This document shows, piece by piece, positions 429 through 41,426 of a stretch of 64,000 nucleotides of DNA. The stretch covers positions 13,917 through 77,916 of the IMG/VR virus record IMGVR_UViG_3300045988_065173; one strand, given 5' to 3'. The translations under genes and the position numbers were made by a program. This stretch comes from a virus. A model generated the notes under the pieces. It was given only the letters and a program-made list of their open reading frames with translations. It did no database searches and was not told the DNA's origin. The stretch's first letter is position 1, and the number at the start of each line of letters is the position of its first letter.

Positions 429-778
429 AATTTAGCAAAATCTTCTTTGACTTTGGCTTTAATCTCTTTTAATTTACTGAGATATTCTTTGTATTCCAGT
501 AAAGCTTCGGAATCCTCTGTAGGATTCTCTGTATAACTGTTGTATGAATTGATTAAATCAAATTCTTCATCAACAGTAAGAAAACTTCTAACAATTGCCT
601 TTACACAATCCTTATAATTAGGTTGTCCGCTAAGTAAAACCTAGATAAAGTTATACTAAAGCTCTAATTTAGTATCTCCTTCCTAGTCCGTTACTTCAGC
701 TTCGACTTCTTTTATATCATAGTTATAGTAATAAGTACCGTTCCCAAGTTTTTGGATTGTCTGGGGCTAAACGTCCAT
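425..778 (-). CDS. small late protein; 4 in-frame TAG codons
   Basis: ATG at 778-776 and TGA at 427-425. Translation is protein-like (…LLEYKEYLSKLKEIKAKVKEDFAKL) and is interrupted only by TAG. Confidence 0.4.
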
Positions 779-1979
779 TTGTATTCTATTCGGTTCTAAC
801 ATAAGGTGTTACTTTAAAATTTATAGGAAATTTGTATCTAAGCAAAGAATAATGTAATTTCTTATTCTTGCTTTTAAAATAATAGGGTTTGTTGTTATAC
901 ATAAAGTGCACTCTAAAATGGCTATGATAATCAACTACCTCTATAATGTGAATATACTTATTATAAAACTTAGATATATTGACTTCCTTTCCATTCCAAT
1001 TTGAGAACTTCAAACCAGTCAAAGTTTCTATCTTTTTCAACAAATTCTTAGAATTACAGAATTTCATCCATCCGAAATAAGATCTCATTCTTCTTTCCAA
1101 TTCTTCTCTATCAATCTTATTTTGCTTATATAGATTTATAAGCTTAAACATTCTCATTTTTATAGATTTTCTTAATAGAACGTGAGTGTGGTAAAATTTA
1201 TAGCCTACAAAATCTACTCCTCTACTTTCTACTGGAAATATCTAGTAGTTAGGTTTTAATTCTAAATTAAGAACTTGTTTTAAATACAGTTTTATAGATA
1301 CTAATACATTTCTCAAATAATTCTTGTCATTACCAAGAATCACAATATCGTCAGCATATCGAAAGTAGTACTTACATTTTAACTCCTCTTTTATCCAGTG
1401 GTCAAAATATGTCAGATATAAATTTGCAAAGAACTATGATAGATAGTTCCCAATAGGAACTCCTTTGGCTGAATATATTATTTCCTTCAATAGACTTAAC
1501 AGTTTCTTATCCTTTATTTTCTTCTACAACATCTCATACAGGATGTCATGTGTTATAGATGGATAAAATTTTCTTATATCCATTTTTAGACAGTATTTAG
1601 TTTCATCTGAGTATTTCTACAATACCTTGAATAAATCATACTCTACCTTATGAATCCCTCTATTTCTTATAGAGGAATATGTCTAATCTATAAAAATGCT
1701 GGTCCAGATAGGTTCCATAATATTCATTATAGCATGATGAGTGATTCTATCAGGGTAGTATGGAAGTCTAAAGATTAATCTTTCTTTAGGCTCATATATT
1801 ACAAACGTACTATACTCAGAAGTCTAATAGATTAACTATTTTAATTTGTCTGATAATTTCTTATTTTCTTCTAATCTATTCTTATCATGCTACTTAATAC
1901 CACATCGAATTGATTTATTTCTTCTAGCCTTATCATCAGCTAATTCGATGTTTTTCAAATCATACACTCGTTCGTGCAA
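723..1979 (-). CDS. DGR-type reverse transcriptase with ~11 in-frame TAG codons; alternative GTG/TTG start likely
   Basis: Hand translation of the minus strand gives IYEPKERLIFRLPYYPDRITHHAIMNIMEPIW…TYSSIRNRGIHKV…SQFFANLYL…FRYADDIVILG…VDFVGYKF (RT motifs 1-7 including YADD, DGR-RT-like N-terminal block). The standard-code ORF 786-1157 is only its C-terminal piece and its apparent stop at 788-786 is TAG. The frame continues to TAA at 725-723. An upstream in-frame TAA at 2003-2001 bounds the N-terminus, and there is no ATG before motif 1. Confidence 0.8.
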
Positions 1980-2140
1980 ATATCCTACACGTTTCAATTT
2001 TTATATATTTCATCGGAAGCTTTCGAGATTTAACCTACTAACACCCTTCATTTAACACTACGTTGTCTTTTGCCTAGAGGCAAGGATATCACTTAACAAA
2101 CTAAAAAAAATAAAATAAATTGTTCTAAATATATAATAAC

Positions 2141-2237
2141 TCAACATTGGAATTGGCATTGCTGACGTCATTGTTAGAATTGAAATAGCTAAGACCTGCA
2201 TTGCTACCATTATTCGCATTGCTGCCTACTAGCAGTT
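2141..2237 (-). repeat. DGR template repeat (TR)
   Basis: Minus-strand sequence gaactgctagtaggcagcAATgcgAATAATggtagcAATgcaggtcttagctatttcAATtctAACAATgacgtcagcAATgccAATtccAATgttgag. It is ~85% identical to the two VR copies, and every TR/VR mismatch has an adenine in this copy. In the target reading frame it is rich in AAT/AAC codons. Confidence 0.8.
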
Positions 2238-2310
2238 CTTTTTGCCAACCAACGGCTTTTAGAAGTAATATCCCACGATTTATATCTAAATCGATTTCTA
2301 TATTTTATTC

Positions 2311-4130
2311 TTAAGATACTCTGTTTAGAGTCCTGAACCCAACATAGGAACCGGCATAGCCGACGCCAAGGCCAGAATAGAAATAGCCAAGACCCGCAGT
2401 GCCACCAGAAGCCGCAGTGCCGCCCACCAGCAGCATGCGAAGCGCTGTAGAGCTAGCGTTGCAAGAGTGGTAATCACACATATAAGTTGTAGTTGAGGCT
2501 CCAGTACAAGAAGATGGTATAATCTCTGCTGTCTCTCCCAAGTCAAACTCTTTAATGTATCCATCTTGCGCTACCTCATATCCTGCTATGGTCTTGCTGC
2601 CAATTACGTCAGTAAACTCTTCCTTATTTGTGGTAGTATATACACTACTGATTTCATTTGCCGCAGTTCTTTGAATAACTACTCCATCTAAGTTTGTCCA
2701 AATATCTCCAAATGGATTGTCAAAACCTCTCCAACGTGGTACTTTGAAAGTGTGAGTAGCTACTGTATCTGTTCCGTTTGTTGCAGTACATTCTGGAATA
2801 ACTAAATCTTTGACTCCAGTGAAATTACCAATATCATTACAATAACCACATGGAGTAATAGGATAAGTTCCATTATATCCAGACCAACTTGTAGCAGAGT
2901 TACTCCAGTCTGTAACTCCAGGACCAAGTCCTCCTTGACGATAACCATCAGAGGTAAGCTCGGCATTGTAGGCAGCCTGAGAGTTAAAGTTAGCGTATTC
3001 TATTACATAGTTCCAGTAGAATATCCATTTATAATATTCATAACACAATAATTCAGAGCCTGCATTTGTGGCATAAGTTCTCATATTAGCTCTAGAAACA
3101 TTAGTTCTAGGTTTTCCTAAATCGCTTCTAAAAGCATCTTTGGTATCAAGTTCAGTAGTTAGATACTTATCGAATTGTACTCTATTTCCACCGCCTCTAA
3201 ATGCTTCTGTAGTATTGACCACGGACACAGCTTTAGGGGTTTCTGACACAGTATTGTCAACTGTATTTCTATATGCGTCAATTAATAGTTCTGGTATTTC
3301 TGCCCACGAATCATCAAGCTTTACTAGAGAAATTCTAACCCATCTTTTATTTCCATTAGAGCCTGATTTACCATAAAATTTAGGAGTGTGGACTCTTACA
3401 GTTCCATCAGTTCCATCAAGCACAGAAGGAGTAATTCCATCTTCTTTGTAAGCCCAATCGTCTGGATATAAATAGTAATTTACTACACCGTTATTTGCTA
3501 CACATCCTCTGTAAGCAGACTAAATAGGAAGGGATTTATGTAACAGTGGATTTCCTATTCTAGTAAGGATAGGAGAAGATACAGTGATGTCCCATTCTAC
3601 TCCATAAGAGTATAAGTCTACGTTACTGCTTAACTCTGTGACTTGTTTGCTTAGACTCTATTGTTCTTTTTGTAATTCTTCCCAAGCAGTATTAAGAGCA
3701 TCAAATTGTTCCTCTAACTTAGTACTAGTATCTGCCCACTATGCAGTCCCATCTTCAGAAAAGGTTAAAATCTATCCAAGTGCTCCTCCAGCAGGTATGT
3801 GTTTATTTCCAGAAGTAGTTGGGTGTACATAATTATTTGCATTATCTGCAATACCACTAAGTTTCTGTTTTTCAGTTTCTGTGTAATTAGCTTCAGAAAG
3901 TCCTTTTCCTGATTCCTTATCTACCTTACTTTCCAACTCCGTTTTAGTAGCTAAACCACTTATATCCTAGTGTTCTTTTAAATAATTTTCATCATTCTAT
4001 AACTAAGACACTTTAGTTGGAATGGCACTAGATTTTGCGTATGTCTAATCTATAGCATTTCCAGAGCCATCATAGGTAGCCTTTAAGTCATATACGGTTT
4101 CTCCAACCTTTATAGATTTGATAGCTGCCA
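2311..4130 (-). CDS. tail fibre / receptor-binding protein, DGR target 1; ~8 in-frame TAG codons
   Basis: ATG at 4130-4128 right after the TAA of the upstream gene. N-terminus MAAIKSIKVGETVYDLKATYDGSGN…KVDKESGKGLSEANYTETEKQKLSGIADNANNYVHPTTSGNKHIPAGGALG(Q)ILTFSEDGTA(Q)WAD carries the widespread phage tail-fibre motif, with TAG at positions that are Q/E in that motif. The standard-code ORF 2311-3423 (370 aa, GTG start) is only the C-terminal part. An in-frame TAG sits at 3522-3520. VR1 lies at the C-terminus. Confidence 0.7.
2338..2436 (-). repeat. DGR variable repeat VR1 (C-terminal 33 codons of the tail-fibre gene)
   Basis: Aligned by hand to the TR. All ~15 mismatches are at TR adenines (c,g,t in VR versus a in TR). 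Confidence 0.8.
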
Positions 4131-4132
4131 TA

Positions 4133-7100
4133 TTATTGTATTATTAAAGTTTCTTCTTCTACATTATGATCTATTCTTTCTATGGAGGCAGTTAAGTCTT
4201 CAACAGCTTTCTACAGTTCAGCCTTGGTAGCGTAGTTCTTTAATGTATCTGGGTCTATTCCAGATCCTCCTACATTTCCTCCAACAACTTTTACTGGTTT
4301 TGCTGAGTTCTTAAACTACCCTTCAACCCAAATTGTTCCCATACTATTTAAAATATTAATTGTTCATTTTCTCCATCTACCTGTACATTACCAGAACCAG
4401 GCTATATTGCATCTATTTTCTTCTACAATTCGTCTACAGCAGCCTTTATTAATCCTTCCACCTCAGCTTTTGTATAGTAACGTTCTGTTAGATATTCACT
4501 TCTGACATATCCTGTATCCTATATATCTTTTTCTCCATAAGTACAATAGTACGTATCGTTCTCTGTCCTATTATTTTCAACTAGGTCATCATAATCTGTT
4601 TGTGGAAGACATACCAATTTAGGAACCTCTTCTGTAAGAGCAACTTGCTTTCCAGATGCTAATAATCTATCGTCTTCTGTAGTAAGTTTAACAGAACTTT
4701 CAATAGTCTGTTCAGTTGTTTCATCTTCTGAACTTTCTCCAGTTGTTCTCTATTGTACTTCTTTTTCGACAATTTTCTAAATAGTAATATCAGAAGTTTC
4801 TATAGAGGTTGATTTTAGAAGCTCTGTGCTAAATTCCTTAGAAGCGGCATCCTAATCTTCCTAATATTTCTTCTAAGTAACAAATATAAAATCGTCATCA
4901 CCGGTTTCAGGAGAATCTCCTCTCAAACTTTCTTTTGTCACATACTCCTCTGCTATCTAATTGGAAAGGTCAGTTAATGACTATTGAGTGGCGTATGTAG
5001 ATTGAGCATTTTCTTTTGTAAGAAACTTTTCATCTACCTACGAGCTAGTGTAGTATGCTTTAATATCTTCTGTAGTAACGTAGCTTCCTAGTTTCTATAA
5101 ACCAGAAACAATTTCATCAATCTATGTCTTTGAGTAATAATTAGTAGCAACCCAGGACTAATACTGATGTGTAGTATGGTAATTTTGATCTAAGTACTCC
5201 TTAGTAATATAGACTTTAGCATCATTTGTTACATCATACACATAGTAATATGTGTCAGGTTCTATAGCATCCTCTTCTACCAGTCTTAAATATTCCTCTT
5301 CAGTTAATGTAACCAGATTAGGAACATCTGACATCATGGCGAATTGGTCTTCTCCAACAAACAACCCATTAGATTTAACATCTACTACTAGCTAATCCTC
5401 TTCTCCTACTACTGGAGACTTTATCTATCCTACAGTAATACTTTCTAGGGAACCATCTCCATCTACCTTTAAAGTCTTATCTAGCTCATCTTGGATAGCC
5501 TATTGGTCTTCGTCATACTATTTCTTTGTAACAAAGACAAAATCATCTCCTTCCATTCCTTCTCCTCTAAGACTTTCTTTGGTAACAAATATGTCATCAG
5601 TTTCTTCCTTAGTGTAATGGTTAGACAAGGCTTTAGATAACAAGGATTCTGGGTCCTCTAAATCTAGGTCAGTTTTAGGGGCATAATTCTCAGTTAATTC
5701 TTCAAGGGTAGCATACTTGGAAAGGTTAGAGATTGTCTAGTCTAAATCCGTTCTAATCTGTACGACAGTAGTATTTAGAGCTTTCTATTTCAACTATTCC
5801 TCTATCTTTTTACCCCATTCTGCTGATAAATAAAACTAATCATCATCTAGGCTGTCTTCATATATGTAATAATATGTTTCTGCATGAAGATATGTTTTAC
5901 CTTCGTCTATAGGTTTAAAATCTTCTGTGGTATTCTCAGACCATTCCTTATATTCAGCCTCTGTACAGGTGATTATCTAAATAGATTCATAAGAAGCTTT
6001 CCAACCTTCTTTGTATTTAATCTTAGACTTATCTACTAACATATAAATATTTCCGTTATCTATATTTGAAACGGTCATGCCTTGATAAGCATATTTCTCC
6101 GGAATAGAATATAATTCGTCTAAATTATTGACTACTGTTCTATTATCAAGAGGTTTAGGAGTTTCTACGGTTAAAGCAACACCTAATGTAGCATCACCTG
6201 TATATTTAAATGCCATTATTGTGATAAAGTAAAGTTAATTTGATGAGGCAATGCTGAAGAATAAGTATCCTTCTTAGTCCATACTTTATAAGGAAATCCA
6301 TTTATCTATTCGGTAGAAGTTTCCCAGCCACTTAAATCAACATTTAAGTATCCCAGTCCTCCATCTACTGTAAATGAATTTAGCTAAGTATTACTTCCGG
6401 GTAATTTTATAATAGCCTTTCCACTTAATGAAAATGTAATAATTCCAGAAGATTGTCCAAATGGAACAAGACTCTATTTGATTAAACTATCTGTATTACC
6501 AGAATACCAAGGGTAGGTAGCAGTCACCTATGCTGTAGTTGATATTGAACCAGCTTCCACCCTCTTGTCTGTAGTTTCTCCTTTATTGTTAATAAGATAT
6601 TCTCCAGCAGCATAATTTACAGTACCAGAATGCACATAAACACCAATAGAATCATATATTTCAGATTCTACAGGAGAATCATTATAGGTAATAGTTTCTT
6701 CTCTATCAGTTTCCTCTCCAGCATCATTTTTTATAAATGTTAAGGTAGGGGTAAGTAAAGCGGATCCTACCTCCACAATCTAAGAGGTGAAGCTATAATA
6801 CAACTAAGGATAAACCAAATCTCTAACAACAGTAGGAAATAATAGAGTATCTATAATCTCATTAAACGGCTTTCCTTTCAATTTTTCAACTGTAGTTCCT
6901 TGAATAACAGCAGAAGTGGTATCATCTGGAAGTTCAGTTTGATAAGTAGCTATAGTTTCTAAACTTGTCTATATATTTGTGATATTCTCAGTATTAGAAT
7001 CTACTTTAGAATCAGTGTTCTTCTAAGCTTCCTATACTCCCTTAACTTCTTCCTTTACCTCTGTTAGAGATGGTTCCAGGTCTTTTACATATATTCCAGG

Positions 7101-10100
7101 TAGGACTACTGTAGAAGGCTCTCCTTCCTCCTCTACTGGAGGAATTTCCTACTAAATAAGATGTATTGCGTTATCCTCCTACTAGGATAGAATTACTTCT
7201 AGAGTATTATCATCCTTTATTTCTATGGTTTTGGAGTTTCTTAGACTATTAGTTATCCAATTCTAGATGTTTTTGTCAACATCTATATTTTTGATAGACT
7301 CGTTAATACCCTCTATTGCCTCATTAATCTCGACTATTTTCTCAGAAAGATTGTTTATGCCAGTTCTGTTAGATTCAATTTCTTCTTCAAGTTCTTCCTT
7401 AAGTACAGTAATAGAAGTTCTGATATTACTTATATCAACTTTTATTTCCTCTATTTCTTCTGTATTAGCTTTGTACTAACTTATAAAGAATAAAGCATAA
7501 TCTAAGGCATCTTTTACAGTATTGATATTCTCTGCAACATCACTAGTATAAGTCCATTTCTATTCTATGTACTATACTAAATCTTTCTAGGCTTCTATAG
7601 TTCCTTCTATATTTCCCCAAAGAAGACTCTACTCATCAGCGATACCTAGATTCTTTCTAACCTTAGCTCTTTCTAATTCAGTTCTATATTCTCCAAGATA
7701 GTTGTTTCTTAGGAGAGGTATAGGTTCACTTTTTATTAAATGTCCTTTCTTTCCACAAGGCTTTATATCAGCATTGCTTACCGAAGTGTAAATAGGCTGT
7801 ATCATTATGATTCAATAATTGCTATTTAATAAATTCGTGATTATCTAATTTTACGGGTAGGTTAATAAAACAAATTAGATTCAAAATATCCTAATAATCT
7901 GGTCTATATCCCTTTCTAACCCTTTTAAGGAAATCCTCATACCTTTTAATAGCCTTTCTTTTAAGAGCATCCACAACCTATACGTTTATGTTCATGGTGA
8001 TTGTCACAGAATCCACCGCAAGTGCGGAACATTGCTAACAATCTTTCAGCTTCCATGAATTGTTTAAAGCCTATTAAATAATCTATAATATTAAGTGTCA
8101 TCCAGATAAAATCTCTTGCAAATATATCTGCATCATGTTCTCTAGTTAGACACTTATTTAATAAAAAGTCAAAGAGTTTCTTACAGTAGTTAATATAACA
8201 CTATTGCAGATTTCCTGTAAAGAACACATCTACCTTACATTTTTTGATAGTAGTCCCTTCTATATTCCTTTCAAGGATTTCTTTTACAGTACATTCCTCT
8301 AGCTCTCCATCTACTTCTTTATATAGTTTCTCTCCATCAGTTATATAGATAGTTTCATAATACTCCTTGTATTCATCAGATGAATTTTCATACCATTTCA
8401 TATTAGGAAGAATTATGTGGTCTACTACATAATATCCATCTTCTTTTACCTTAAATGTACAAGAGTCTAAATCCTCTGTATGGTCATTGAGAAGTACGTC
8501 TATCAAAGTAGCATCTCCTATACTAACTTTTATGATAGTATTTAGGGTAGCACTTTCACTATACTTATAAGAATCATAGGAAGTTACTACCTCTAAATCT
8601 TCATCAATATACTATCCATATTCCTTTGAAAAGTCTTCAATAGTTATTTCCCCGTTAATCTGGGTATGTATATCAATACTAAATTCCATATTATAATAAT
8701 TAAGACTCAGTAGTAGGCCATTGACCATATTGAGCAGGGATAGAAAATGGTTTCCACTTACCTTCTTGTCGTATACGTCTAGACATAAAAACTGAACTAA
8801 ATGATAAACTAATATCTTGAGGATAGTCTGTCCATGTATATGACTAACCTTCAGGAGTCGGTGGTAGACTATTTAACTTACCAGCTGGTTCCCCATTCCA
8901 ATAATAATTATAGTCATATGCTTTAGTTGGAGTAACAGTTGTTGTTTCATGTCCTTCCGAATCTACATATAGAGGATTTCCCTCCTCATCTGTTTTCTAC
9001 TTATACTCAATAACTGGAGTTATTCCCTCAGTTCTAGTGTATATGTTCTAAATAATAGTAGAAACATCACTTGCTACAATCTCATAAATAGTAGTTCCCT
9101 GAGATTCGTCAGCTCCCTAGAAAGTAAATTTAGTTCTTTTCCAGATGTATGGATTCTCTTCAGTTGGAAGTTCAAAAGTATCAGTCCACTATTTATTAGA
9201 TAATTTTATCTCAGATTCGTCAGCAGTGTCAGCAGGTAAGTAATGAATCTTAATAATAATATTATTTACCGCCTCACTAGAACCAGAAAGGTCTGACACC
9301 TATTTAAATAGTTTCTTTAAATCTTCTTCCACATTTGATTTGGAACCAGAAGCATTACTAATAATTACTGAACCATCTGAAATAGGATAAATCTATTGCT
9401 AATCCTTATCATATACAATTGTTCCAGTTGCCATATTAATGTATTTGTCTTATTTTGTCATTATACGGATTTCCATCATGAAGCTAAGCCAACTCTATTT
9501 CAGTTCTCTTTTCTTCTATATCCATTTGTCTATCTTTATATGTAGAATCAGATTGAGCTTTGAGCCAGTTAACCTTATATTCTAACTATATTTTCTGCTA
9601 CTCTAATCCTAATCTCTATTCATCCAAGCTTTCTATCTTCTACTAAGCTTTCTATAGTTCTTGCTATAACTGCTGTGCCTATTGTGAAGTTTCTTCCAAT
9701 TTTTCCTATAGCTGCTATAGCTAATTGTTTTCTTCTTTACGAATCTATACTGCTTTCTTAACCTTATATTTAAGGTCTGTAAGACTCTTAGCAGTTAGTG
9801 CCTCAAATATAATGTCAGGATCCATTTGCTGACTTTTAACAAACTCTGGAATAATAGCTTTAATAGTTTGTAAATCTTCCATTACTTCAGAGCTAGAAGT
9901 TATATGGATGTCATAATCAGTAACCGTAAAATATTCTGGAAGCGCTGTAAATATCTGCTGGTATTTATCTCCAAGTATAATAGTACCAGTCAATCCTTTC
10001 TTATATGTTATTTTAGCCTAGTTTAGACTGTCCAATAATATCTCACAAGTGATCAGATCCATCTACTAGAAATAATGCTTGGTTACTATGTAAGAGTTAG

Positions 10101-11540
10101 TAACACCTTGCTTAATATTAGTTACAGCATCATGAGTTTCTATTCCATTTAATCTTTCTCTAAATACTCCAGTTATAGATGATGTAGTTTGTTCTACTGA
10201 TTGAATTGCTAATTCAATAGCCTATACAGCCTAAGCTTTTAAGGTATCATCAAATCCATTGTATATCTAGTTAGGTGCTTGCGCTCCATCATTTCTTCCC
10301 TCCTAAGTGGAATCAATCCACATGATACCACCCTTCTTGTATGCTAACCATTTCTACACTCTTTCTGGCCATTTTACGCCTAGGTTAGTAGGAAGCAATG
10401 ACATATCCATGATTACTCCAGCAGTACCGCTGTTAGCTATCAGGTTGTCCCTATAATAATTTAACAAGTCATATCTATCCTATAGATGTGCACATTTTAA
10501 TATCAGGGAGTATGGTTGTTGAGAACGATTTAAGAAATATACCCCATTTACAGACAAAGAGCAGAAATTAGGATTATCTTTTGACCTCATAACAGTCTTG
10601 TCTAGACCTCTCAGAATATATATTTCTTCTCCAATTCTAATGGTATTGTATCTCTACATTACAAAATCGTCATCAGTTTCTATCCACTCTACATCATAAA
10701 CAGGAATTAACTAAAATCTATGAGCACTATATTCATTATCTGGATATCCAGGAATAGTTTCATGATTCTAGTCTTCATTTACTATAGTACAAGTGTCACC
10801 ATAAACTCTTCTATAAACTGCAGCTGAATCATCGGCTCTCCATTCATCTTTTAGTCTTTTCAAATCTTCTCTAGAGATTTCTTTTCCGTATTTAGCTAAT
10901 ATCTAGCTTTTACTCATCCATTTTCTAACTACTACTCTATACGAATTTTTAACATATGGAGATTCTGGATTCCTATCTACGAAAGTATTTAAAGGATTCA
11001 GAACTTCTATTTCTATGTTAGTTCCAGAAGATGATGATTTTACTCTGAAAAATGTATAGCCAGTAATTAATAAATCTGTAAGTAACTATCGGAGTTTAGT
11101 TATTAAATCGGTTTCTCTAGACTGCATGATATAATGAATAATATTCTATGCAGCTATCTCATATTGAGAAATAAAAGACTAATCAATGTCTTGAATAATT
11201 TTATCTAACTAAGTCTTCACGGCTTTATCTGTAATATCTTTTCCGTCGATAAATTTCAGAATAGAATTACTTAAATGGTCTCTAAGAAATTTAACTATCC
11301 CTTTAGTTATTTCCAACTATTTTTCTCTGGTGATATTACTAATGGTATCTGAATCCTTACAAGAAATCTTCGGAAGGATAGGGGTTCCTAGATATTCCCC
11401 TACTAGAGCATCTACGTGCTTCTTTAGTAATGGTGTAAATTCTACAGAAGTAGGACTACCTATTCCGAAGTTTTCTTCCAGGTAACGAAACTATTCTGGA
11501 TCTCTCTTTCCGTTGTAGTAATTATAGGCTTTCTATAATT
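4133..11540 (-). other. late structural gene block (head/tail/portal genes presumed); minus-strand coding with TAG as sense, individual genes not resolved
   Basis: Dense minus-strand coding signal but only short standard-code ORFs (5158-5364, 5977-6216, 6528-6776, 8201-8506, 9745-9993). Every checked interruption is 'cta' on the plus strand, i.e. TAG on the minus strand. Confidence 0.5.
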
Positions 11541-11548
11541 CGTACTTA

Positions 11549-14165
11549 TCATATACAAGCTCCGCAATAGCCTCGTTCGTCTTGTCTATCAGTTCTTTTT
11601 CTTTCATAACATAAATTATGCTGTTCTGGAGGAAGTTTAGTTGCATTATAGTATTTAACTCTTTGTAACTTCCTACTTCTTAATTCTTCCTTTATAAATG
11701 GGAGAAATTCTTCATCAGGTAAATCAGCTATAATGACTAAAGGCATCTCTGACCTATCAAAGTTAAATGATACCTTATAACCAACTGGATCTAGGTTCTG
11801 AATTTCAAGCCCACCTACGTATTCCATTTTGTACAAGTCTCTCATATAACCTAGGATCACTTGTTTCAATTCTGTATGGGTCATCGTATTCATTTTTTTG
11901 TATGTTAGTTTCAAAAGTCTTAGAAGTTGGTATAACCCCAAATCTTTTGATTCCTCTCTCGTCGTAATAATAACCATAATCTTGGAATTGTTCAACTTCT
12001 TTTTCAACAAGCACTGGCTATCTTCCTGACAATTCCTAGTCTGCCAATTCTGTCATTCCTACAGCGGCTACAATATCGAATTTACCTTTATTCTCATCAT
12101 TATATCCAGTAAATTGGTCTAACATTTCTTCAAACCATATAGTATGACAGAAATCCTCAATAAAGGCTGCTGTCAAATCAGTATGTTGTTCTATAATAGT
12201 TTTGGTAGCGGGTGTTCCGTACTATTTAGTAGTTCCATTCTTGACGTCTGTTAGAGTAGCTCTAGGTCTTTTCATAAAGTAGTTTAAACAACCCTTTTCT
12301 CTAGCCCAGGTAATCATACCTACACGAGTAGCTTCTATGTTTATTCTACAATTATAGTATCTAGCTAAACACATAGCTATTTTATAGGCTTCTCTAATGT
12401 CATTAGGTCTGTCTTTATACATAGCAACATACTACGGTTCGTTTAGACCAAATGCTCTTCTTTTTATAGTTATACAGAAATCAGAAGGGTCTCTTGTTTC
12501 TTTTGAAGTTTGACTAGCTCCTATATCAATGCCGTCTATTCCTGCAACATATAAATCATGCATTTCTTTATACGCTGGAGATTCAAATTCTTCTCCCCTT
12601 TCCTCAGCTTCCTATCTAAGTTTATCCATCTACTCTTTATACAAATCAGACCATACAGGATGTTCAAGTATTTTTACTTTTCCGTTAATATTAGGAATCC
12701 ATTTAAAACCATCTATATTATCCTAGGTGTGTTTATTATTTTTATAGAAGTAGTCTATGTATCCAGATTCTGGTCTTGGTCCTATTTTCTTAAGTCTTAT
12801 ATTAGCTAATTGGTCTGCAATAAGAATCTTGTTGAACTTGTTAACACCTTCAAGATTAAATGCTTCTTCTGCATTCCAACATCGTTCGGCACACTTCTTT
12901 AGATAGTCGTCTGGAACTGCTAATAAATTGTCACGCTCTTCCTATAGATACTTTTTATATTCTACTGTATTACACACACCTCTATGGTCCATGTATTCTG
13001 AATTTAGAGACTAGACAAAATATGGAATGAAGAACCCACTTTCAATAGTAGTCCCATCCTGTGTATAATTATGTCTAAATGGAAGAACTTTGTAAGCTTT
13101 TGGATTATAATATATTTTCTTAAGACCTGCTAATGGAGCACCCATATCACCACCAGTACCTCCAAATAACATTGTTCCACGAGGTTTACCCTGAACTTCA
13201 CAAAGCTCTTGTCCCTGCACTACAGCAGTATCTAGTCCAGGCCAAGACCCTGCTTCATCATATATTAATAGGTCAACACGGTCTCCACGAATATTAGATG
13301 CCTTAGCTCCATTTATTCCAACTACTTCTGATTTAAACCCAACATCCTCAAACTGCCCGTTTACCTTAATCTGTTTACCGGACTTCTTTCTTAAGTCTTG
13401 GTCAATCAAACGTAGTTTGAAGAATCCTCCTCCTGTACAAGTATTCAAGAATGTTAAAGCATTATCAAACTTACTAAAAGTACCTTTAAGGAAGGTATCA
13501 TTAAAACAAGTAATCATTACTCTGCTTCTTCTGATTACTGAATACATTCTTGCAGATAAGGATGCATTTATTTCAGAGAATCCAATAGAACGAGCTTTCA
13601 TGAGAGCTGCGTGTTTATGCAGGACTCTAGCCATCTATAGATAATGAAAGAACATATAATGAGATGCGAAAAATATAGGAAAGTCACTACTTGTTCCTTC
13701 TCCAGATGCCTTGTTATCATCAATAATAGGAAGCTAGTAGAAGTTTAGGAAGAAATAGTTATCTCCAGTAATTGTATAACCATTAACAGTCATTCCATAT
13801 TTACATCTTCTATACTATTCCTTCCAAAACTCATTATATCTCTTACTATCTTTTAGATATGGACAATACTTTCCAGTTTTTCTATATACTTCTCTGGTCT
13901 CAGTAAACCAATCTGGGTCGAAGTCAAGACCGTGTGTTTCATCTATTGGTCTATATCCAGTTATTTCATAAGATAAAGTAGGGTCAAATACCTCTATCTT
14001 ATCTCCTCTTTTTACATCCCAATAATCAGCATTTTTGCCTCTTTCCTCTCTTATCTTCTATACTAGTTCTCTAGCTTCTTTGGCATCCTCTTTTTGTTCT
14101 TTCTCTCTTACCTAATCTACTATATTCTAGATTTCTTCAGGTAATATTTTTTTCTTTCTAGGCAT
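11549..14165 (-). CDS. terL: terminase large subunit (TerL), multiple in-frame TAG codons; boundaries approximate
   Basis: ATPase-domain fragment 13011-13634 has a Walker-B-like DLLIYDEAG and a Walker-A-like LMKARSIGFS. The frame reads through TAG at 13013-13011 into nuclease-domain fragments (12222-12422, 11549-12010), and also upstream through TAG at 13637-13635 to an ATG near 14165. Confidence 0.6.
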
Positions 14166-15547
14166 AATTAAAAGTCTCCTGGGTCAAAGCCGTCTATAGC
14201 TCCACCTCTTACAGTAGATTGTTCTGTAAGCTCTTTCTTAACCTGCTCTTCTAGTGTTACTAATTCTTCATGAACTTTATGAAGAGTAGCCATTTCTTTC
14301 ATTACCTTTTCAGCTTGAAAGACGGGTTTGCCATTATTATCACGTTCATTTAAATCTACTATAGTATCAAAATAATCAATAAACTAGTCAGCTGCTCTTT
14401 TAGCTGCTTCTAGAAGTTTTATTGATTTGTTAGAATCCTATAATGCTCGGTATTTTCTACAGGCTTCCCTGAATAATGGGTCATTAAATTCGGATTCAGA
14501 TAGTCCAGAGTCGCTAATAGCCTCATCATGTCTTTCATGTTCTGAATATTGGCTATAAGGACTCTTCCAATCAATAGCTAGATAAATGTAAGATAATTCT
14601 CTAGTTACTCGTTCCTTGTCAACAGATTTATCTCTCTGTATCAAAGCCTTAAACTCTTTAACTAGAAGAAGCTCTGGTTCATTTATTTCTAACTATTTAG
14701 TTAAAGTGTTATAATTAAATACATTCATACTCATCAATCATTAACATTAACATCTTTAATCTTTTTATTTCATTTTAGAACCGCATTTACTTACTTTCAT
14801 TTTAGAACCACAAGAATCCTTCTTAGCATACTTTGTTCTATCTGGAACCCATTTTCCATTTTTAAAGTTTCCTTTATGTCCCTTATTTGCCATGACCTCC
14901 TAGTCATTATATTTATTAATAGATACAGAATCTCTAGATGCTTCATCCTTTGCAGATTTCATATCCTTTCTATACTAAGCTCTTCCAGCCTTGAACTTGT
15001 CGACCTCATTAGCTTTCTTAGTAACCTTAGTTCCTTTCTATGCTTTTTGGCAAGCTTTGCAGATTCTTCCTCCCTGTTTAAAATAAACAAGTTCCTCTCC
15101 TTCTGGGCATACTCCTTTTAATTTTTTATAGTATTCTAGTTTAGCTCCAAGTCTAGCCATAACTCCGCCTTGCATCTTCTACATAAATTCTTGATACTTA
15201 GCTTTAATTCCATCTTCTCCAAGCTATTCAGCGTAAGCCTATAAATCTTGCTCTGATTGTAATTGTATTCCTTGTGCTTGGGCATCTTGTATCAAGTATG
15301 CCATGAATGCCTTCCGTAATTCTTCCTAATTAGCCATTACTCTTCTACTTTAATTAAATCCTTTGTATTAAATACTGCTTCCTGCATTAATCCAGAATCA
15401 GTAAACCATCTACATCTTAGTCCTCGTAATCCTTGGTTATCTTTAAATAAAGCTGCTTCTCTTCTTAGAACAAGCATAACTGGAGAGTGCATTACTTTAC
15501 ACTACCGTAAAGTAACACAATCCCCAGGCTTAAAATAAACTTTTTCA

Positions 15548-16150
15548 TCAATTGTTTCCATGCTTCAATTCGTCTCTTCTTTCAGTTAGTTTCTCATTAA
15601 CTACAGCCATGATTCTATTCTCATTAACTACTACAAATCCTAGTTTATAGAATGGAACCATACATTCACTAGCTATTGTATAAAATACAATATCTCCAGG
15701 CTTCAAGAACTCACACTTATGTCCTACTTCTATCACAGTTCCTACCTTAATAAATTGTTGCTCTTCTTCAATTTCTCCAGTCTCATTAGATTTATAAGTA
15801 GGAGTAAATCCACCTAAATCAGTAATAAGACCACTTTTAGTAGTTTTTATTTTTTGGAATGGGTTTTGTTCAAAAGGTTTAATTAATGCATACCCATACA
15901 TCGGCATAATTTCAAGTCCATTCATATCGTTAGATAATGACTTAGCGTAATCCTCTAGTGCCTGATTATGTTTGGAGAATTTATCTTCTAACTCATCTAC
16001 TGAGGTATTAAACTTCTCTTGTTTTTCTCTTAATAATGTTTGGTCTGCAGCCTCCCCATTTAAAATAAAATGTTCTCCCGTACCTTCCATTCCAGTTAAT
16101 GATAGCGCTAGTTTTTCGTTACTGTTTAATTCTGTTCTTAAAGTTTCCAT
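15548..16150 (-). CDS. hypothetical protein
   Basis: Intact 200-aa ORF with no TAG needed. Confidence 0.5.
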   Translation of the reverse strand: METLRTELNSNEKLALSLTGMEGTGEHFILNGEAADQTLLREKQEKFNTSVDELEDKFSKHNQALEDYAKSLSNDMNGLEIMPMYGYALIKPFEQNPFQKIKTTKSGLITDLGGFTPTYKSNETGEIEEEQQFIKVGTVIEVGHKCEFLKPGDIVFYTIASECMVPFYKLGFVVVNENRIMAVVNEKLTERRDELKHGNN

Positions 16151-16158
16151 AATTCATT

Positions 16159-16542: not shown

Positions 16543-16691
16543 CCCTTTATATACCCTTCTTTAGGGCTTATACTTATATCATTATTCTTTGGATTTAGAT
16601 ACAAATGCCCATTACATAATCCATTATCTTGGTCACATATTGGGCAGCGTCTACATATCTCAAATCTTTCTTCTATTTCCTCTAGTGTCAT
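16476..16691 (-). CDS. small Cys-rich protein, paralog of 16159-16542
   Basis: Intact ORF that overlaps 16159-16542 by 67 nt in another frame. Same CxxC…C…HC…KW pattern. Confidence 0.35.
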   Translation of the reverse strand: MTLEEIEERFEICRRCPICDQDNGLCNGHLYLNPKNNDISISPKEGYIKGCGCLLEKKIPNEKKHCPAGKW

Positions 16692-16693
16692 AA

Positions 16694-17722: not shown

Positions 17723-18065
17723 ATGTCTAACAGTAATAAAATTACAACATTTGGGTGTCCAATTTTTAAAAATGGGTCGGGCATTCACATTAAAGAGAAG
17801 AACAGAGGCAAATTTACAGCATCTGCTAAGGCTGCAGGATAGTCTGTACAGGAACATGCTAAATCTGTACTAAACAATCCTAATGCTACTCCTCTTCAGA
17901 AGAAGCGTGCTAACTTTGCTAGAAACGCGGCTAAATGGAAACACGAAGATGGAGCTAAGATACATAAACCAAGTGGACATAGATCTATTCTAGATAATGG
18001 ATGGATTCCTACTACTAGATTAAAGAAAGGAAATTATGGATTAATTAAAACAAGAAAGCAATGAA
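17723..18065 (+). CDS. hypothetical protein; 1 in-frame TAG
   Basis: ATG at 17723. Frame open to TGA at 18063-18065 except for one TAG (GGA TAG TCT). Confidence 0.45.
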
Positions 18066-18139
18066 CGCTGTAGTTAAATTAATTAAAGAATTTATACTTA
18101 AGATATATCTTTATTTACTATTTATATTTAATAAGTAAT

Positions 18140-18331
18140 ATGGACTATAATAGAGCAACTCTTTATGCGGCTACTGGTCGTACTTTATTACTCCCTGGCT
18201 GGAAAGGATATTTTTATTGGGACTATACTAAGAATGAATTAAATTTTAGAAATGGAGACTATCATTTAGATAACAAATAGCTCAAGGAGAAAGGAGTTAT
18301 GGAACGTAATGATTGGTATTATATAATATGA
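18140..18331 (+). CDS. small hypothetical protein; 1 in-frame TAG
   Basis: MDYNRATLYAATGRTLLLPGWKGYFYWDYTKNELNFRNGDYHLDNK(TAG)LKEKGVMERNDWYYII. Confidence 0.4.
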
Positions 18332-18382
18332 TAATTAAAGAGGTAATTAAAACAATTGTAGTAACTAAATATAGAATTACTT

Positions 18383-18847
18383 ATGAGTTGGTTTTCTGAA
18401 TTATTTACTTTGGCGGGCAGTCTTTTTAAAGATATTGATTAGAAAGAAGAACCTAAATTAATCTAGATGAAGTATTTTCCGTTTAATGGATTTTCTTATA
18501 TGTCTTGGTGCGGAAATATTATTTATAAAAAAGATAGATATGCTAATATAAAAGAATAGTCTTTGTGGCATGAGAAGATTCATATTCTATAGGCAGCTAA
18601 GAGTTATAAGAGATGGTATTAGTTCTATTTAAGCTATCTTAAATACTGGATTAAAGGTAATCCTATTAGTAATCCTTCTATTAGTGCTTACTATACTATT
18701 CCTTATGAAATGGAAGCCTATGCTAATGAGGACAATCCTAATTACTAGGTAACTAAAGATAGTTATAAAAGATATATTATAAAAGATAGAAAGAATACTT
18801 TTAGAAAGAACAGAAGTAATTGGATTAAGTTTATTAAATAGTTATAA
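18383..18847 (+). CDS. HExxH-motif protein (putative metallopeptidase-like); 6 in-frame TAG codons
   Basis: MSWFSELFTLAGSLFKDID(Q)KEEPKLI(Q)MKYFPFNGFSYMSWCGNIIYKKDRYANIKE(Q)SLWHEKIHIL(Q)AAKSY… contains a WHEKIH (HExxH) motif. Stop codon is TAA. Confidence 0.45.
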
Positions 18848-18854
18848 AAAAATA

Positions 18855-18898
18855 GGCGAGCCTAGAGATTAGGTTCGCCTATTTTTATTTAACATTAT
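18855..18898. terminator. bidirectional rho-independent terminator between convergent genes
   Basis: TAGGCGA…TCGCCTA, a perfect 7-bp stem, flanked by an A-run on the 5' side and TTTTATT on the 3' side. Confidence 0.6.
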
Positions 18899-19112
18899 AC
18901 TTTGTATCATAAGTACAAGTGATTCTATTTATACCATCCTCCCACCAAGGTTTATCTGATGGCTATCTAATACCACTTGGGATGGTTATTGTAGGAGTAG
19001 AAGTTTCTACTATAGCATCTAGTATTTTAAATAATGTATCCAAGTCAAATTCTGGAAATTCATTATGTAAGTTTGTCAATGTCTTTTTAAAGTCTATCAT
19101 ATTTAATATATC
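18885..19112 (-). CDS. small hypothetical protein; 1 in-frame TAG
   Basis: MIDFKKTLTNLHNEFPEFDLDTLFKILDAIVETSTPTITIPSGIR(TAG)PSDKPWWEDGINRITCTYDTKYNVK. Confidence 0.35.
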
Positions 19113-19265
19113 ACACTTAGTCTATTTAATTCATCTAGGTAATCTAGAAACCATTGTTCATTTTGTCTCCCTTCTTCTGCAACAATCTCAATTAAAGATT
19201 CTGCTGCTAGGAGTATAGTTTCAGATAACTCTTTTAAATTTGGCTTAGTTAGTTCGTTGTATTTA

Positions 19266-19580
19266 TCAGTCAAGTTTAACATAATCCATCCAATCTTTTA
19301 TATATGATTTACATTCCTCTAAATCTGGATAGATACTTGCTATAGTGCAACCTGTTTTTGGATTCCTAAAATGATGGAGTTTTGCTTCCTCATTTTTCTC
19401 CTCTTCTATATTTCTATTTAATGTTCTATTCCAGTAGTTGTATTTCTCATCTAGTATTTCCTTATCACATTCTTCCAATATTTTCATATTGGGATTACTC
19501 ATTATTTTGTCATACTTTCTTTTTAAATTAGAAACTTTGACAACATCATTACCATTCAATACGACTGCACACTGTTTCAT
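19266..19580 (-). CDS. hypothetical protein
   Basis: Intact 104-aa ORF. Confidence 0.5.
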   Translation of the reverse strand: MKQCAVVLNGNDVVKVSNLKRKYDKIMSNPNMKILEECDKEILDEKYNYWNRTLNRNIEEEKNEEAKLHHFRNPKTGCTIASIYPDLEECKSYIKDWMDYVKLD

Positions 19581-19804
19581 TTCAATACCTTATAAGTACA
19601 TATCTTACCTATCTGTTTTCCTTGAACTGTTATTTGTGGAAGAAAATAGCAGGCTTGATTCTCAAATTCTTGAGGTACAAAGATATAATCAAACTTACTT
19701 CCAACTACCTTCTCACAAACTTTATTCCAATCGTCTCCCTCCTCTATAATAAGAGTTTTAGCTCCTGTTGGAGTTATTACATAATTCTCATTTAATTTTA
19801 TCAT
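19577..19804 (-). CDS. hypothetical protein (MIKLNENYVITPTG…)
   Basis: Internal ATG of ORF 19577-19879. The longer N-terminus overlaps the tRNA and is rejected. Confidence 0.45.
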   Translation of the reverse strand: MIKLNENYVITPTGAKTLIIEEGDDWNKVCEKVVGSKFDYIFVPQEFENQACYFLPQITVQGKQIGKICTYKVLK

Positions 19805-19811
19805 AACTATT

Positions 19812-19883
19812 AATTTTGGCGTTGCCCTACTAGGATTCGAACCCAGACTAAATGATTTAGAGTCATCTGTGCTGACCATTACA
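19812..19883 (-). tRNA. tRNA-Sup(CTA), amber suppressor, glutamine-like
   Basis: Minus-strand sequence tgccctatggtgtaatggtcagcacaGATGActCTAaaTCATTtagtctgggttcgaatcctagtagggcaa. Full cloverleaf with anticodon loop c-u-CUA-a-a. The acceptor, D and T arms are near-identical to tRNA-Gln(TTG) at 33768-33839, including U1-A72. Confidence 0.85.
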
Positions 19884-19949
19884 CCATAGGGCAGTAACTT
19901 ATTTCTCTTTTAGAGATTTATTTTCTGCTGCCAATTTCTCTAGTTCTTT

Positions 19950-20432
19950 TCTTAATTGTTCATTTTCGTGAAATAAAGCCTGCATAGTAGCGTTGATATT
20001 AGCTAATAGTATTCTCATTTGAGCAACCTATTCATACATAAGCTTTCAGTTGTTCAATTCTCTTTTTAGCTATATCTGACAATGCCATTTTAAATTTAGC
20101 AATACCAGCTCTTACTGATTCCAATTTTCCACTTTCCAAACATTCTTGAATTTTATTCAATTCGGACTCTCCTAGATATTCGCAGACATCTATAAATAAA
20201 TCATCATCTAAAGATTCTAAGTATTTCTGGAATTTGCCTACTTCTTCATTAGCTAGACAGCTTTCCTCTTTCTATCTTTCATAAGATATTAATAAGAATA
20301 AAGAATCATCTGTGGATTCCGCTTTAATGGTTAGACCATTACTTGATAGATAATACTCCTAGTTCTTATTAATTGCATCAACGAGATTCTTAAACTCGTC
20401 CTAATTTAGTAATGTTTCTAAGTCTGTAATCA
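19950..20432 (-). CDS. first gene of the late transcription unit; several in-frame TAG codons
   Basis: ATG at 20432-20430 (MITDLETLLN(TAG)DEFKNLVDAINKN(TAG)EYY…). Frame is open to TGA at 19952-19950 only when TAG is read through. Confidence 0.45.
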
Positions 20433-20483
20433 TAATTGTTTCTTTTTTAGTTATATACAACAATACCTTCTGAAAAGTTAAAT

Positions 20484-20491
20484 ACAAAGTT
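20484..20491 (-). promoter_or_regulatory. Bacteroides-type -7 promoter element (TAnnTTTG) for the late transcription unit
   Basis: Minus-strand TAACTTTG sits ~50 nt upstream of the ATG at 20432. Confidence 0.3.
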
Positions 20492-20561
20492 AAAAAATTC
20501 TAATTCTAATATTATACATATTTCATTTAGTTATCCGTAAATGGGTACAGGTACTTTATAT

Positions 20562-20582
20562 AAATAGCCCCCTGGGGGTTTA
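20562..20582. terminator. hairpin terminator (CCCCCTGGGGG) downstream of the HNH gene
   Basis: agCCCCCtgGGGGGttt, followed by T/A-rich runs on both strands. Confidence 0.4.
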
Positions 20583-20595
20583 ATAAATTCGGAAT

Positions 20596-21447
20596 TTAGA
20601 AATTAGAAATATTATTATATAAATCAGAAATTAATTTTTTAAATTCTTCTGTGGTCATATCATTCTTAGCAACATTTACTCTGGTAGTTGTGATAACAAT
20701 ATTTCCTTCTACGTACCCCAAATTACTATCTATTCTATCTATTGAGTAATCTTCGTAATTTTCTGGAATTAATCCAGTATAATAATCCTTATATTCTTGC
20801 TTTAATAATAATGATTCAATATAATCTTCAGTAATTGAATATTCTATATATCTAGAACTTTTCTTTGCTCTATTTTCTGATTTATATCTTAAATGTTTTG
20901 CAATTTTCTCTGATTGTGTTTCAGATTTTTTATGTGCTTTTTCTTGGGAGGTAATTGATCGATACCCTTTATTTTCTATATAAACCGCATTCTCTGGAAT
21001 CAAAGAAATATATGAATAATTATTTAGTATTCCAAATATTGAAGACTCGTTATTATAAACTCGTAATATTCCATCTATTGTTCTTTTTAAATTTCCGCAG
21101 TTTTCATTCCCATTTACTCTTCTAGCTATTTCTTTTCTAGATAAATCTTCTGTTATATTCTGCTCTATACATCTTAACAAGAATCCCTTTTGAGCGTTAG
21201 TTAATTTTTCATTTAATATAAAGTTTGGACATGGATAATCCTTTAAAATTTTATATCTATTGTAAAAACCGTTAATAGTATGGTTCTCTACATAATTTAG
21301 ATCTACTAATTCTTTTAACATCTTAGGAATATCATTTTTTGATATTCCGAACTTTTTATTTAGTTCACAAGTACTAAAGTGAGCTAAATCTTCTTTTCCT
21401 TTGTATGCGTTTATTATCGCAAATAATAAATTTAGATTTCTTTTCAT
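20596..21447 (-). CDS. HNH homing endonuclease with N-terminal DNA-binding region
   Basis: C-terminal IDRIDSNLGYVEGNIVITTTRVNVAKNDMTTEEF (HNH-type H-N-N). Intact in the standard code. Confidence 0.65.
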   Translation of the reverse strand: MKRNLNLLFAIINAYKGKEDLAHFSTCELNKKFGISKNDIPKMLKELVDLNYVENHTINGFYNRYKILKDYPCPNFILNEKLTNAQKGFLLRCIEQNITEDLSRKEIARRVNGNENCGNLKRTIDGILRVYNNESSIFGILNNYSYISLIPENAVYIENKGYRSITSQEKAHKKSETQSEKIAKHLRYKSENRAKKSSRYIEYSITEDYIESLLLKQEYKDYYTGLIPENYEDYSIDRIDSNLGYVEGNIVITTTRVNVAKNDMTTEEFKKLISDLYNNISNF

Positions 21448-41332: not shown

Positions 41333-41405
41333 TGGGCCGTTAGCTCAAATGGCTAGAGCGCTGGTTTTGCACACCGGAAGATAGGGTTCGAGTCCCTGCG
41401 TGTCC
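41333..41405 (+). tRNA. tRNA-Ala(TGC)-like (acceptor stem pairs poorly)
   Basis: Anticodon loop uuUGCac on a CTGGT/ACCGG stem, with canonical D and T arms. Only 4 of 7 acceptor pairs. Confidence 0.45.
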
Positions 41406-41426
41406 ACAAACTTTATTTAAAGAATT

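Follow-up and report, generated by a model that had tools for sequence, protein, structure and literature searches.

The DNA considered here is a stretch of 64,000 nucleotides (nt; hereafter the window) that spans positions 13,917 to 77,916 of the IMG/VR virus record IMGVR_UViG_3300045988_065173 and belongs to a zeta crAss-like phage of about 187 kb. On its minus strand it harbors Sup1, a tRNA gene with the anticodon CUA. Sup1 is very probably the phage's own glutamine (Gln)-type amber suppressor and the decoder of a block of late genes written in genetic code 15; it would decode in-frame UAG codons as Gln in packaging and virion genes and in those of a diversity-generating retroelement (DGR). 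This reading comes from the structure and kinship of the tRNA, the use of TAG in the late genes and the comparison with related phages, all of which are sequence data.

A canonical tRNA(CUA) akin to tRNA-Gln

Sup1 is called both by ARAGORN, at 19821-19893 (minus strand), and by the Rfam tRNA model RF00005, at 19822-19893 (minus strand), the latter with 66.3 bits and an E value of 3e-12, well above the gathering score of 29. An earlier note on this DNA had described a complete cloverleaf with anticodon CUA at 19812-19883; the tRNA is there, both programs place CUA at positions 34-36, and the length was right, but the gene lies 10 nt away from that interval. On the minus strand, its 5' part reads TGCCCTA-TG-GTGT-AATGGTCA-GCAC-A-GATGA-CTCTAAA-TCATT, and its 3' part, which follows TCATT, reads TAGT-CTGGG-TTCGAAT-CCTAG-TAGGGCA-A. 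The architecture is canonical. The acceptor, D and anticodon stems have 7, 4 and 5 bp, respectively, the D loop has 8 nt and contains GG, the variable loop has 4 nt, and the T loop reads UUCGAAU. The anticodon loop is the 7-nt CUCUAAA, with U33 and A37, and further landmarks are U1-A72, G2-C71, G10, G18G19 and the discriminator A73; the terminal CCA is not encoded. A CUCUAAA loop is said to be optimal for amber suppression, an idea associated with the 'extended anticodon' of Yarus and the suppressor set of Kleina, Normanly and Miller.

Relatives of the phage were collected by searching IMG/VR with the large terminase TerL, which returned 64 loci (given L numbers below), mostly on contigs of about 180-190 kb. 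Covariation was assessed in 73 gap-free columns, with 8 distinct Sup1-type sequences of relatives and 3 tRNA-Gln(UUG) sequences. Standard pairs were found in 99.6% of the cells, with both sides changed in 11 of the 21 pairs; none of 500 shuffles was as good, and structures slid by 1-3 columns paired in 44-49%. The CUA anticodon is kept in all 11 distinct Sup1 sequences, which represent 51 loci, and the exact sequence of the window occurs at 30 of them. Failure of a covariance model and a shift of the anticodon call to another triplet, the two outcomes that the note had named as speaking against its claim, did not occur, because the covariance-model score, the covariation and the CUA call all hold. 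Sup1, one of the 24 tRNA genes that ARAGORN counts in the window, is a real phage tRNA gene and, by its features, a functional-looking amber suppressor.

When Sup1 was aligned globally with the 23 other tRNAs of the window, the closest was the phage tRNA-Gln(UUG) (78% identity), followed by Sup2, the second tRNA(CUA) of the window (70%), the remaining isotypes reaching 65% at most. In a gap-free alignment, the identity between Sup1 and tRNA-Gln(UUG) is 75-78% overall, 84% outside the anticodon arm and 47% inside it. The acceptor, D and T arms had been described as near-identical in the two tRNAs, which holds for the D arm, with an identical stem and one different loop base, but not for the T arm, with 2 changes, or for the acceptor stem, where pairs 3:70 and 4:69 are inverted in a compensatory manner. 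Within the anticodon arm, 3 of the 5 stem pairs are replaced and loop positions 32, 34, 36 and 38 differ. The proposed origin of Sup1 by duplication plus anticodon mutation is at odds with this degree of divergence. Moreover, the clade at 74% TerL identity holds both lineages, each of them conserved (Sup1, and tRNA-Gln(UUG) in L229), so that any duplication must be ancient. By these comparisons, Sup1 is an ancient paralog of tRNA-Gln with a remodelled anticodon arm. Outside that arm it is 79-84% identical to phage and Bacteroidales-labelled tRNA-Gln, with which it has U1-A72, G2-C71, G10 and A73 in common.

The coding sequences point to the same amino acid. In 7 late proteins, 89 of the 108 TAG sites face a Gln in at least one relative, and the residues aligned to these sites comprise 1300 Q and 221 E, the runner-up, a ratio of about 6:1. 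When TAG is read through, the minus strand yields long open reading frames (ORFs) between about 15.5 kb and position 1; besides TerL and the portal (Table 1), the late block (723..15561, minus strand) also holds ORF74, ORF190, ORF188, a DGR-type reverse transcriptase and other genes for virion and fibre proteins. The reverse transcriptase and the fibre-like protein encoded near it probably constitute a DGR, as reported for zeta crAss-like phages. TAG represents 33-76% of the Gln codons in the late genes and 0% in the interspersed genes, and because of this share, its decoder must be both efficient and abundant. As judged from the alignments, TAG behaves as Gln in the late proteins of the window, and the decoding of TAG as Q in crAss-like phages has been confirmed by metaproteomics (PMC9523058). 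The description of Sup1 as a Gln-type suppressor is thus borne out, with Gln(UUG) as its nearest neighbor in the window and TAG sites that align mainly with Q. For annotation, this means that the minus-strand block of the window should be translated with code 15 (TAG = Gln).

The plus-strand replication/tRNA block makes hardly any use of TAG, which ends 4 of its 59 ORFs, 2 of which have TAA directly after it (37117-37122 and 56056-56061, both on the plus strand). With TAA in that place, the protein would be essentially unchanged with or without suppression of TAG, and such tandem TAG-TAA gene ends have been seen in other zeta phages as well (PMC12386605). Neither an aminoacyl-tRNA synthetase nor a release factor was found among the 20 plus-strand proteins of the window that were scanned, and the idea of a 'code-change module' in the window was dropped for this reason.

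Mature Sup1 would be charged by the host glutaminyl-tRNA synthetase (GlnRS). The identity set of E. coli GlnRS comprises a weak 1:72 pair, G2-C71, G3-C70, G10, U35, G36 and G73. Sup1 has U1-A72, G2-C71, G10 and U35 from among these elements, and the E. coli set may not be that of the host. Several observations weigh against the role proposed here for Sup1. It lacks G3-C70, G36 and G73, having C-G at 3:70, A73 and the A36 that any CUA anticodon entails, and in the L033 clade the 2:71 pair is C-G too; the same 20-nt D arm is present in 98 tRNA-His(GUG) genes of Patescibacteria; and Sup2 could take over part or most of the decoding load. The A73 of Sup1 recurs in phage and Bacteroidales-labelled tRNA-Gln. 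As for the D arm, a search of 185,579 species genomes (GTDB) returned 116 matches, made up of 98 tRNA-His, 14 tRNA-Gln and 4 CUA tRNAs. Since 98 of the 116 are tRNA-His of Patescibacteria, the D arm alone is not diagnostic of the isotype, and the search was abandoned as a proof of it.

That Sup1 is not a Gln tRNA at all, but a tRNA-Pyl or a suppressor charged with His, Glu, Lys or another amino acid, is very improbable. It is labelled 'tRNA-Pyl' by ARAGORN, which prints this for any CUA anticodon, its D arm is shared with Patescibacterial tRNA-His, and E and K are the next commonest residues at TAG-aligned sites. The tRNA-Pyl has a compact D loop, a 6-bp anticodon stem, a 3-nt variable loop and neither G18G19 nor TψC, and its gene is found alongside pylS/pylBCD. 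The 5-bp anticodon stem, the 4-nt variable loop, the G18G19 and the TTCGAAT of Sup1 are unlike these features, and the scans of window proteins turned up no pyl genes. The G-1/C73 signature of tRNA-His is missing from Sup1, the tRNA-His of the window is not among its 8 nearest tRNAs, and Q prevails over E by about 6:1 at the TAG sites.

Contigs that bear the label of bacterial metagenome-assembled genomes (MAGs) carry 3 of the 4 CUA tRNAs from the D-arm scan, and these 3 match Sup1 exactly or nearly so. Among the GTDB contigs with a Sup1-type tRNA(CUA), L140 and L146 have the identical gene, L164 differs by 2 bases and L103 is at 82% identity; their labels include 'Bacteroides sp. HRGM_Genome_0403' and 'uncultured Tenericutes'. 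One of them, DXLM01000001.1 (L118/L140; 186,052 bp), which is labelled a Bacteroides MAG, carries a phage tRNA-Gln (L118) besides the Sup1-type gene, and we suspect that these MAG-labelled contigs are mis-binned phage genomes.

Table 1. Features of the window, and split Sup1 genes of relatives, with their coordinates and the evidence or TAG content noted for each.
Feature	Position	Strand	Evidence and remarks
Sup1, tRNA(CUA)	19822..19893	-	ARAGORN, Rfam tRNA model, sequence read, covariation
Sup2, second tRNA(CUA)	23289..23359	+	ARAGORN; Rfam 59.6 bits
Phage tRNA-Gln(UUG), closest Sup1 paralog	33768..33840	+	ARAGORN, Rfam, alignment
RAGATH-14 RNA	23042-23233	+	150.2 bits, gathering score 149.1; 55 nt upstream of Sup2
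Pistol ribozyme	23692-23765	+	62.3 bits; after small ORF 23415-23690
HNH/endonuclease VII-like gene	20596-21447	-	0 TAG; PHROG matches, synteny
Intergenic region, 162 nt	20434-20595		
Promoter-like TTTTTAACTTTG containing TAACTTTG (TAnnTTTG match)	20485..20496	-	51 nt upstream of ORF133 ATG
ORF133, first conserved gene of terminase-strand block	20032-20433	-	3 in-frame TAG
ORF46, coiled-coil-like small protein	19899-20039	-	1 in-frame TAG
ORF75, first gene after Sup1	19577-19804	-	0 TAG; ATG 17 nt past the tRNA
ORF75, ORF104, ORF59	19103-19804	-	0 TAG each
ORF71	18885-19100	-	1 TAG
Island of three recoded ORFs	17723-18847	+	1, 1 and 7 TAG
Exonuclease, two Zn-finger proteins, GroES-like protein	15548-17608	-	0 TAG each
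ORF74, then heavily recoded block	from 15561 down	-	1 TAG, then many
TAG-recoded late block	723..15561	-	read-through ORFs, PHROG, Pfam, TAG counts
Large terminase TerL	11805-14165	-	15 TAG; PHROG 1e-61
Portal	9436-11646	-	33 TAG; PHROG
606-aa fibre-like protein, near reverse transcriptase	2311-4131	-	
Reverse transcriptase	723-1727	-	Pfam RVT_1, YADD motif, 6 in-frame TAGs
Split Sup1 (relatives)	L024 1885-2957; L030 3053-4094		L031, 3' half only

Operon context, the second suppressor and timing

Sup1 belongs to the recoded operon itself, where two ORFs with TAGs precede it, and not to a clean standard-code module. Its place near the head of the terminase-strand block is kept in 51 of the 64 related loci, and it is the second or third gene of that block in every clade examined. 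In relatives, the homologue of ORF133 comes first on the terminase strand and the tRNA after it, down to 67% TerL identity. The three TAGs of ORF133 have no counterpart in the distant clades L033, L042 and L060, where the number is 0, and ORF46 is conserved in L001, L010, L013, L014 and L038. The HNH gene next to ORF133 sits in the divergent intergenic region and is unrelated to the HNH gene found in the introns of L024 and L030 (see below). Because it is absent from this site in close relatives, L001 among others, it is probably a free-standing homing endonuclease, a lineage-specific insertion. The conserved order of ORF133 and the tRNA, together with this insertion, makes it structurally right to place Sup1 at the head of the block; it had also been placed just downstream of the first late gene, and nothing shows ORF133 to be 'late'. 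No significant PHROG or Pfam match was obtained for ORF133, ORF46, ORF75, ORF104, ORF59 or ORF71. Within the minus-strand block, the plus-strand island of recoded ORFs coincides with a local reversal of the GC skew. It encodes, among others, a protein of 154 aa that has an HExxH motif and whose 7 Gln codons are all TAG; relatives have comparable islands there, likewise on the opposite strand and heavily recoded.

How Sup1 might be expressed is suggested by its immediate surroundings. The spacers that flank it, 5 nt from the TAA stop of ORF46 and 17 nt to the ATG of ORF75, leave no room for a promoter of its own, and no terminator-like hairpin was found between ORF133 and Sup1. Co-transcription followed by processing by RNase P and at the 3' end is the simplest interpretation of this arrangement. 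Sup1 would be transcribed as the third gene of a terminase-strand polycistron, from a promoter region upstream of ORF133, excised from the mRNA by RNase P and 3'-end processing enzymes of the host, and then provided with CCA.

The promoter itself is less clear-cut. A Bacteroides-type -7 box had been placed at 20491-20484, and the motif is indeed present, one base away (TAACTTTG, 20485-20492 on the minus strand), but it occurs at chance frequency across the window, with 76 TAnnTTTG observed and 74.5 expected; TTTTTAACTT is also at chance frequency. At this site, the TTTTTTAACTT core is invariant in 9 aligned relatives, and so is the TAACTT core of TAACTTTG; the TTG that closes the -7 consensus of Bacteroidota has been lost in L033, L042 and L060. 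The -33 TTTG that would be expected about 19-21 nt upstream of TAACTTTG is not evident. A near-identical copy, TTTTTAACTTTG[A/T]ATTTAAC, is found at 47301 in the plus block, so that the motif, if it is a promoter, is not specific to the late strand. A scan for sigma-70 promoters gave fewer matches than expected, and the sigma-70 model is irrelevant for Bacteroidota.

Sup2 has the same CUCUAAA anticodon loop as Sup1 and an atypical 6-nt D loop without GG, and thus no G18G19. It heads the plus-strand replication/tRNA block, and it is confined to a subclade at 89-98% TerL identity, in which it always lies 26-55 nt 3' of a RAGATH-14 RNA. Outside these zeta-like phages, the RAGATH-14 core pattern was examined in 25 contigs, and in none of them does a tRNA adjoin it; a general association of RAGATH-14 with tRNAs was rejected for this reason. 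The collection of papers searched contained none on RAGATH-14. Three main alleles of Sup2 and a divergent variant in L025 are shuffled among the TerL clades. Allele C, present at 9 loci, has the anticodon UUA, and L007 and L008 carry a derivative of it with a 6-nt loop. The type-A copy of L047 has CUG, and the L025 variant has an 8-nt loop. No TAA recoding of TerL was found in the carriers of the UUA allele.

The earlier note proposed that the place of Sup1 makes it a built-in temporal switch, with the suppressor produced at the start of the late transcript and licensing the translation of everything downstream. On such a model, late proteins would have to wait for the tRNA of their own operon, which would set the time of assembly and lysis. 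A contribution of Sup1 to timing is plausible, but we regard it as secondary and rather doubtful. In its favor, Sup1 keeps its second or third place on the terminase strand in every clade, and L033, L042 and L060 have a single gene upstream of Sup1 on that strand, with 0 TAG. In addition, no further suppressor lies between Sup1 and the array of tRNAs in the L033 clade, and the Sup2-bearing subclade is the one in which TAGs precede Sup1 (3-4 in ORF133 and 1 in ORF46). A general model of this kind has also been published (Borges et al., bioRxiv 10.1101/2021.08.26.457843; PMC7886860). However, synteny is generally conserved in the clade, so the position of Sup1 by itself proves nothing, and the correlation between Sup2 and upstream TAGs amounts to essentially one evolutionary event. 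The tRNA does lie on the same strand as the TAG-containing late genes and upstream of them, but 4 TAGs (3 + 1) precede it in the same operon of the window, and the next ~4.5 kb 3' of it are mostly free of TAG, the heavily recoded block beginning only at 15561/15337. TAG content follows the class of the gene rather than its distance from Sup1, with none in the exonuclease, Zn-finger and GroES-like genes. A license for everything downstream is hard to reconcile with the upstream TAGs, with the many downstream genes that have none and with the recoded genes of the opposite strand at 17723-18847. Nor does a single switch agree with Sup2, which heads the standard-code block of the other strand, and the promoter-like motif also occurs in the plus block and at chance frequency. 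With 4 TAGs upstream and a second suppressor on the other strand, gene order is ambiguous as to timing, and the layout of the window matches the temporal-switch model only imperfectly.

It has also been proposed for such phages that suppressors act chiefly against the host or competitors, through read-through of host UAG stops that would harm host proteins, those of defence among them, recoding being secondary (PMC7886860, PMC12386605). There are zeta phages that have a CUA suppressor and no recoding (PMC12386605), and the UUA alleles of Sup2, which would read the common TAA stop, occur at 9 loci without TAA recoding of TerL. For Sup1, such a main role appears improbable. About one Gln codon in two is TAG in the essential late genes, so that the decoding of phage genes would be a role both sufficient and necessary, and the anticodon of Sup1 is invariant, only that of Sup2 varying. 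Sup2 might instead be the main or early suppressor and Sup1 a redundant booster retained by synteny, a view that can invoke the identical CUCUAAA loop of Sup2, its score of 59.6 bits and its place at the head of the plus-strand block. We give it little credence. Sup2 is restricted to the 89-98% TerL subclade, where near-identical genomes have CUA, UUA, CUG or a broken loop and the alleles are shuffled among clades, and the allele in the window lacks G18G19. Sup1, in contrast, is present and invariant wherever the late genes are recoded, and it is kept in L024 and L030 even though it is split there by an intron. Decoding of the recoded late genes by Sup1 is the reading that we retain.

Copies of Sup1 split by a putative intron

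Sup1 went undetected in 13 of the 64 loci. In L024 (TerL 86% identical, with 24 TAGs) and in L030 and L031 (74%), synteny shows the gene in its usual place, interrupted after U35. An insert of 1000 nt (L024) or 969 nt (L030) lies in the anticodon loop and consists of a leader of 21 nt (L024) or 15 nt (L030), an HNH ORF just past the 5' splice site (272 and 265 aa, respectively, 79% identical, without TAG) and a 3' core of about 160 nt. The last base of the 5' exon is U, and that of the insert is G. A pairing GACUA...UAGUC resembles P7, and a P3-like CCCUCU...AGAGGG has the covarying counterpart CUCUCU...AGAGAG in L030; covariation is also seen in the anticodon stem of the tRNA that splicing is predicted to give (GATGA/TCATT vs GAGGT/ACCTT). 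Neither the split tRNA nor the intron was detected by ARAGORN or Rfam, the Rfam Intron_gpI model gave no match at E <= 1 on the L024 insert, and the intron core is absent elsewhere in the window. The insert would be a group I-like intron, recognised from manually identified features only.

Group I introns in tRNA anticodon loops are known from bacteria and plastids and have been described in cyanobacterial tRNA-Leu UAA, in Azoarcus tRNA-Ile and in Patescibacteria (PMC13011429). The Sup1 genes of L024 and L030 are likewise cut in the anticodon loop, that of the window being intact. They differ from the known cases in that their insert bears an HNH ORF close behind the 5' splice site and does not match Intron_gpI, and self-splicing is putative.

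The phage, its kin and what the suppressors may tell

The assignment of the window to the zeta crAss-like phages is based on its layout, DGR, tRNA array and amber recoding (PMC7886860). Like ctoVY1, cthgQ11 and 3717_85572, phages of 182-189 kb listed with CTA, amber recoding and a DGR (PMC12386605, Table 1), its lineage has a CUA suppressor. The resemblance extends to the divergent two-block layout with a tRNA array, the size of the relatives (about 185-190 kb), the recoding mainly of late genes and a DGR reverse transcriptase that itself contains TAGs. No close phage was found in INPHARED by megablast or blastn, which returned only fragments of 89 nt or of about 69% identity. From about 24.5 kb, the plus strand carries 22 tRNAs and genes for SNF2-like and DnaB-like helicases, NAMPT and SPFH proteins, and the GC skew changes sign at about 21-22 kb.

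A few further elements were noticed in this part of the window. At 22415-22503 (plus strand), a non-coding element of about 89 nt is 87% identical to an intergenic stretch without annotation (NC_055903, 6730-6821) in cr272_1, a crAss-like phage of another family. Its features are a hairpin, a UAUAAAUAAG linker and, possibly, a pairing of the loop with sequence downstream that recalls pistol; there was no Rfam match, and its folding z-score is only -1.8. Two weak matches to the Rfam tRNA model without an ARAGORN call, at 41334-41406 (39.5 bits) and 41625-41680 (32.9 bits, a partial match), both on the plus strand, could be degenerate or split tRNA genes of the array. Directly upstream of the 22-tRNA array, 24543-25502 (plus strand) encodes a radical-SAM-like protein (weak Pfam match, CxxxCxxC), which could be a tRNA- or nucleotide-modifying enzyme.

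Suppression by a tRNA derived from tRNA-Gln has well-known precedents. The supE (glnV) suppressor of E. coli is a tRNA-Gln with CUG changed to CUA. Like supE, Sup1 would insert Gln, and the CUCUAAA loop of engineered amber suppressors is that of Sup1; however, supE differs from a cellular tRNA by one point mutation, whereas Sup1 is a fixed, presumably essential phage gene with a remodelled anticodon stem, its anticodon arm being 47% identical to that of Gln(UUG). In alpha-group crAss-like phages, a suppressor arose from tRNA-Gln by an anticodon mutation from TTG to TTA (Yutin 2021). Gln ancestry is common to that case and Sup1, and the CUA, UUA and CUG of Sup2 are each one step away from Gln anticodons, but the alpha-group suppressor is a recent point mutation without recoding, and Sup1 an ancient paralog that would serve heavy recoding. 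The window also agrees with the code-15 recoding described in crAss-like phages (Yutin 2021; Borges 2021/22), with TAG in structural and packaging genes and replication genes compatible with the standard code. In crAss-like phages, CUA suppressors for recoded late genes have been described before, as has the proposal that they act in timing (Yutin 2021; Borges 2021/22; zeta survey 2025), and suppressor tRNAs have been catalogued in zeta phages (PMC7886860, PMC12386605). These zeta papers list one 'CTA' per genome, without the operon-embedded position, a second cassette with CUA, UUA or CUG, or intron-split copies.

One might picture amber suppression in these phages as layered and evolvable, combining an operon-embedded tRNA-Gln(CUA), intron-gated copies and a recombining cassette of RAGATH-14 RNA and tRNA. 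Such a picture is tentative and, taken as a whole, unlikely. In it, the place of Sup1 ahead of the TAGs may matter, upstream TAGs being found only in the two-suppressor subclade, and in some relatives Sup1 may be producible only after removal of an HNH-bearing intron of about 1 kb.

Conceptually, Sup1 adds little to what has been published. The points that could matter are the intron-split gene and the allele series of Sup2, both of which may be new observations. Published surveys have noted many recoded phages without a detectable suppressor, with only about 40% of TAG-recoded phages having one. As an intron-split gene is invisible to ARAGORN and Rfam, split suppressor genes, if real, would provide a partial explanation for such cases, and the CUA/UUA/CUG series of Sup2 would offer a handle on how phage codes evolve.

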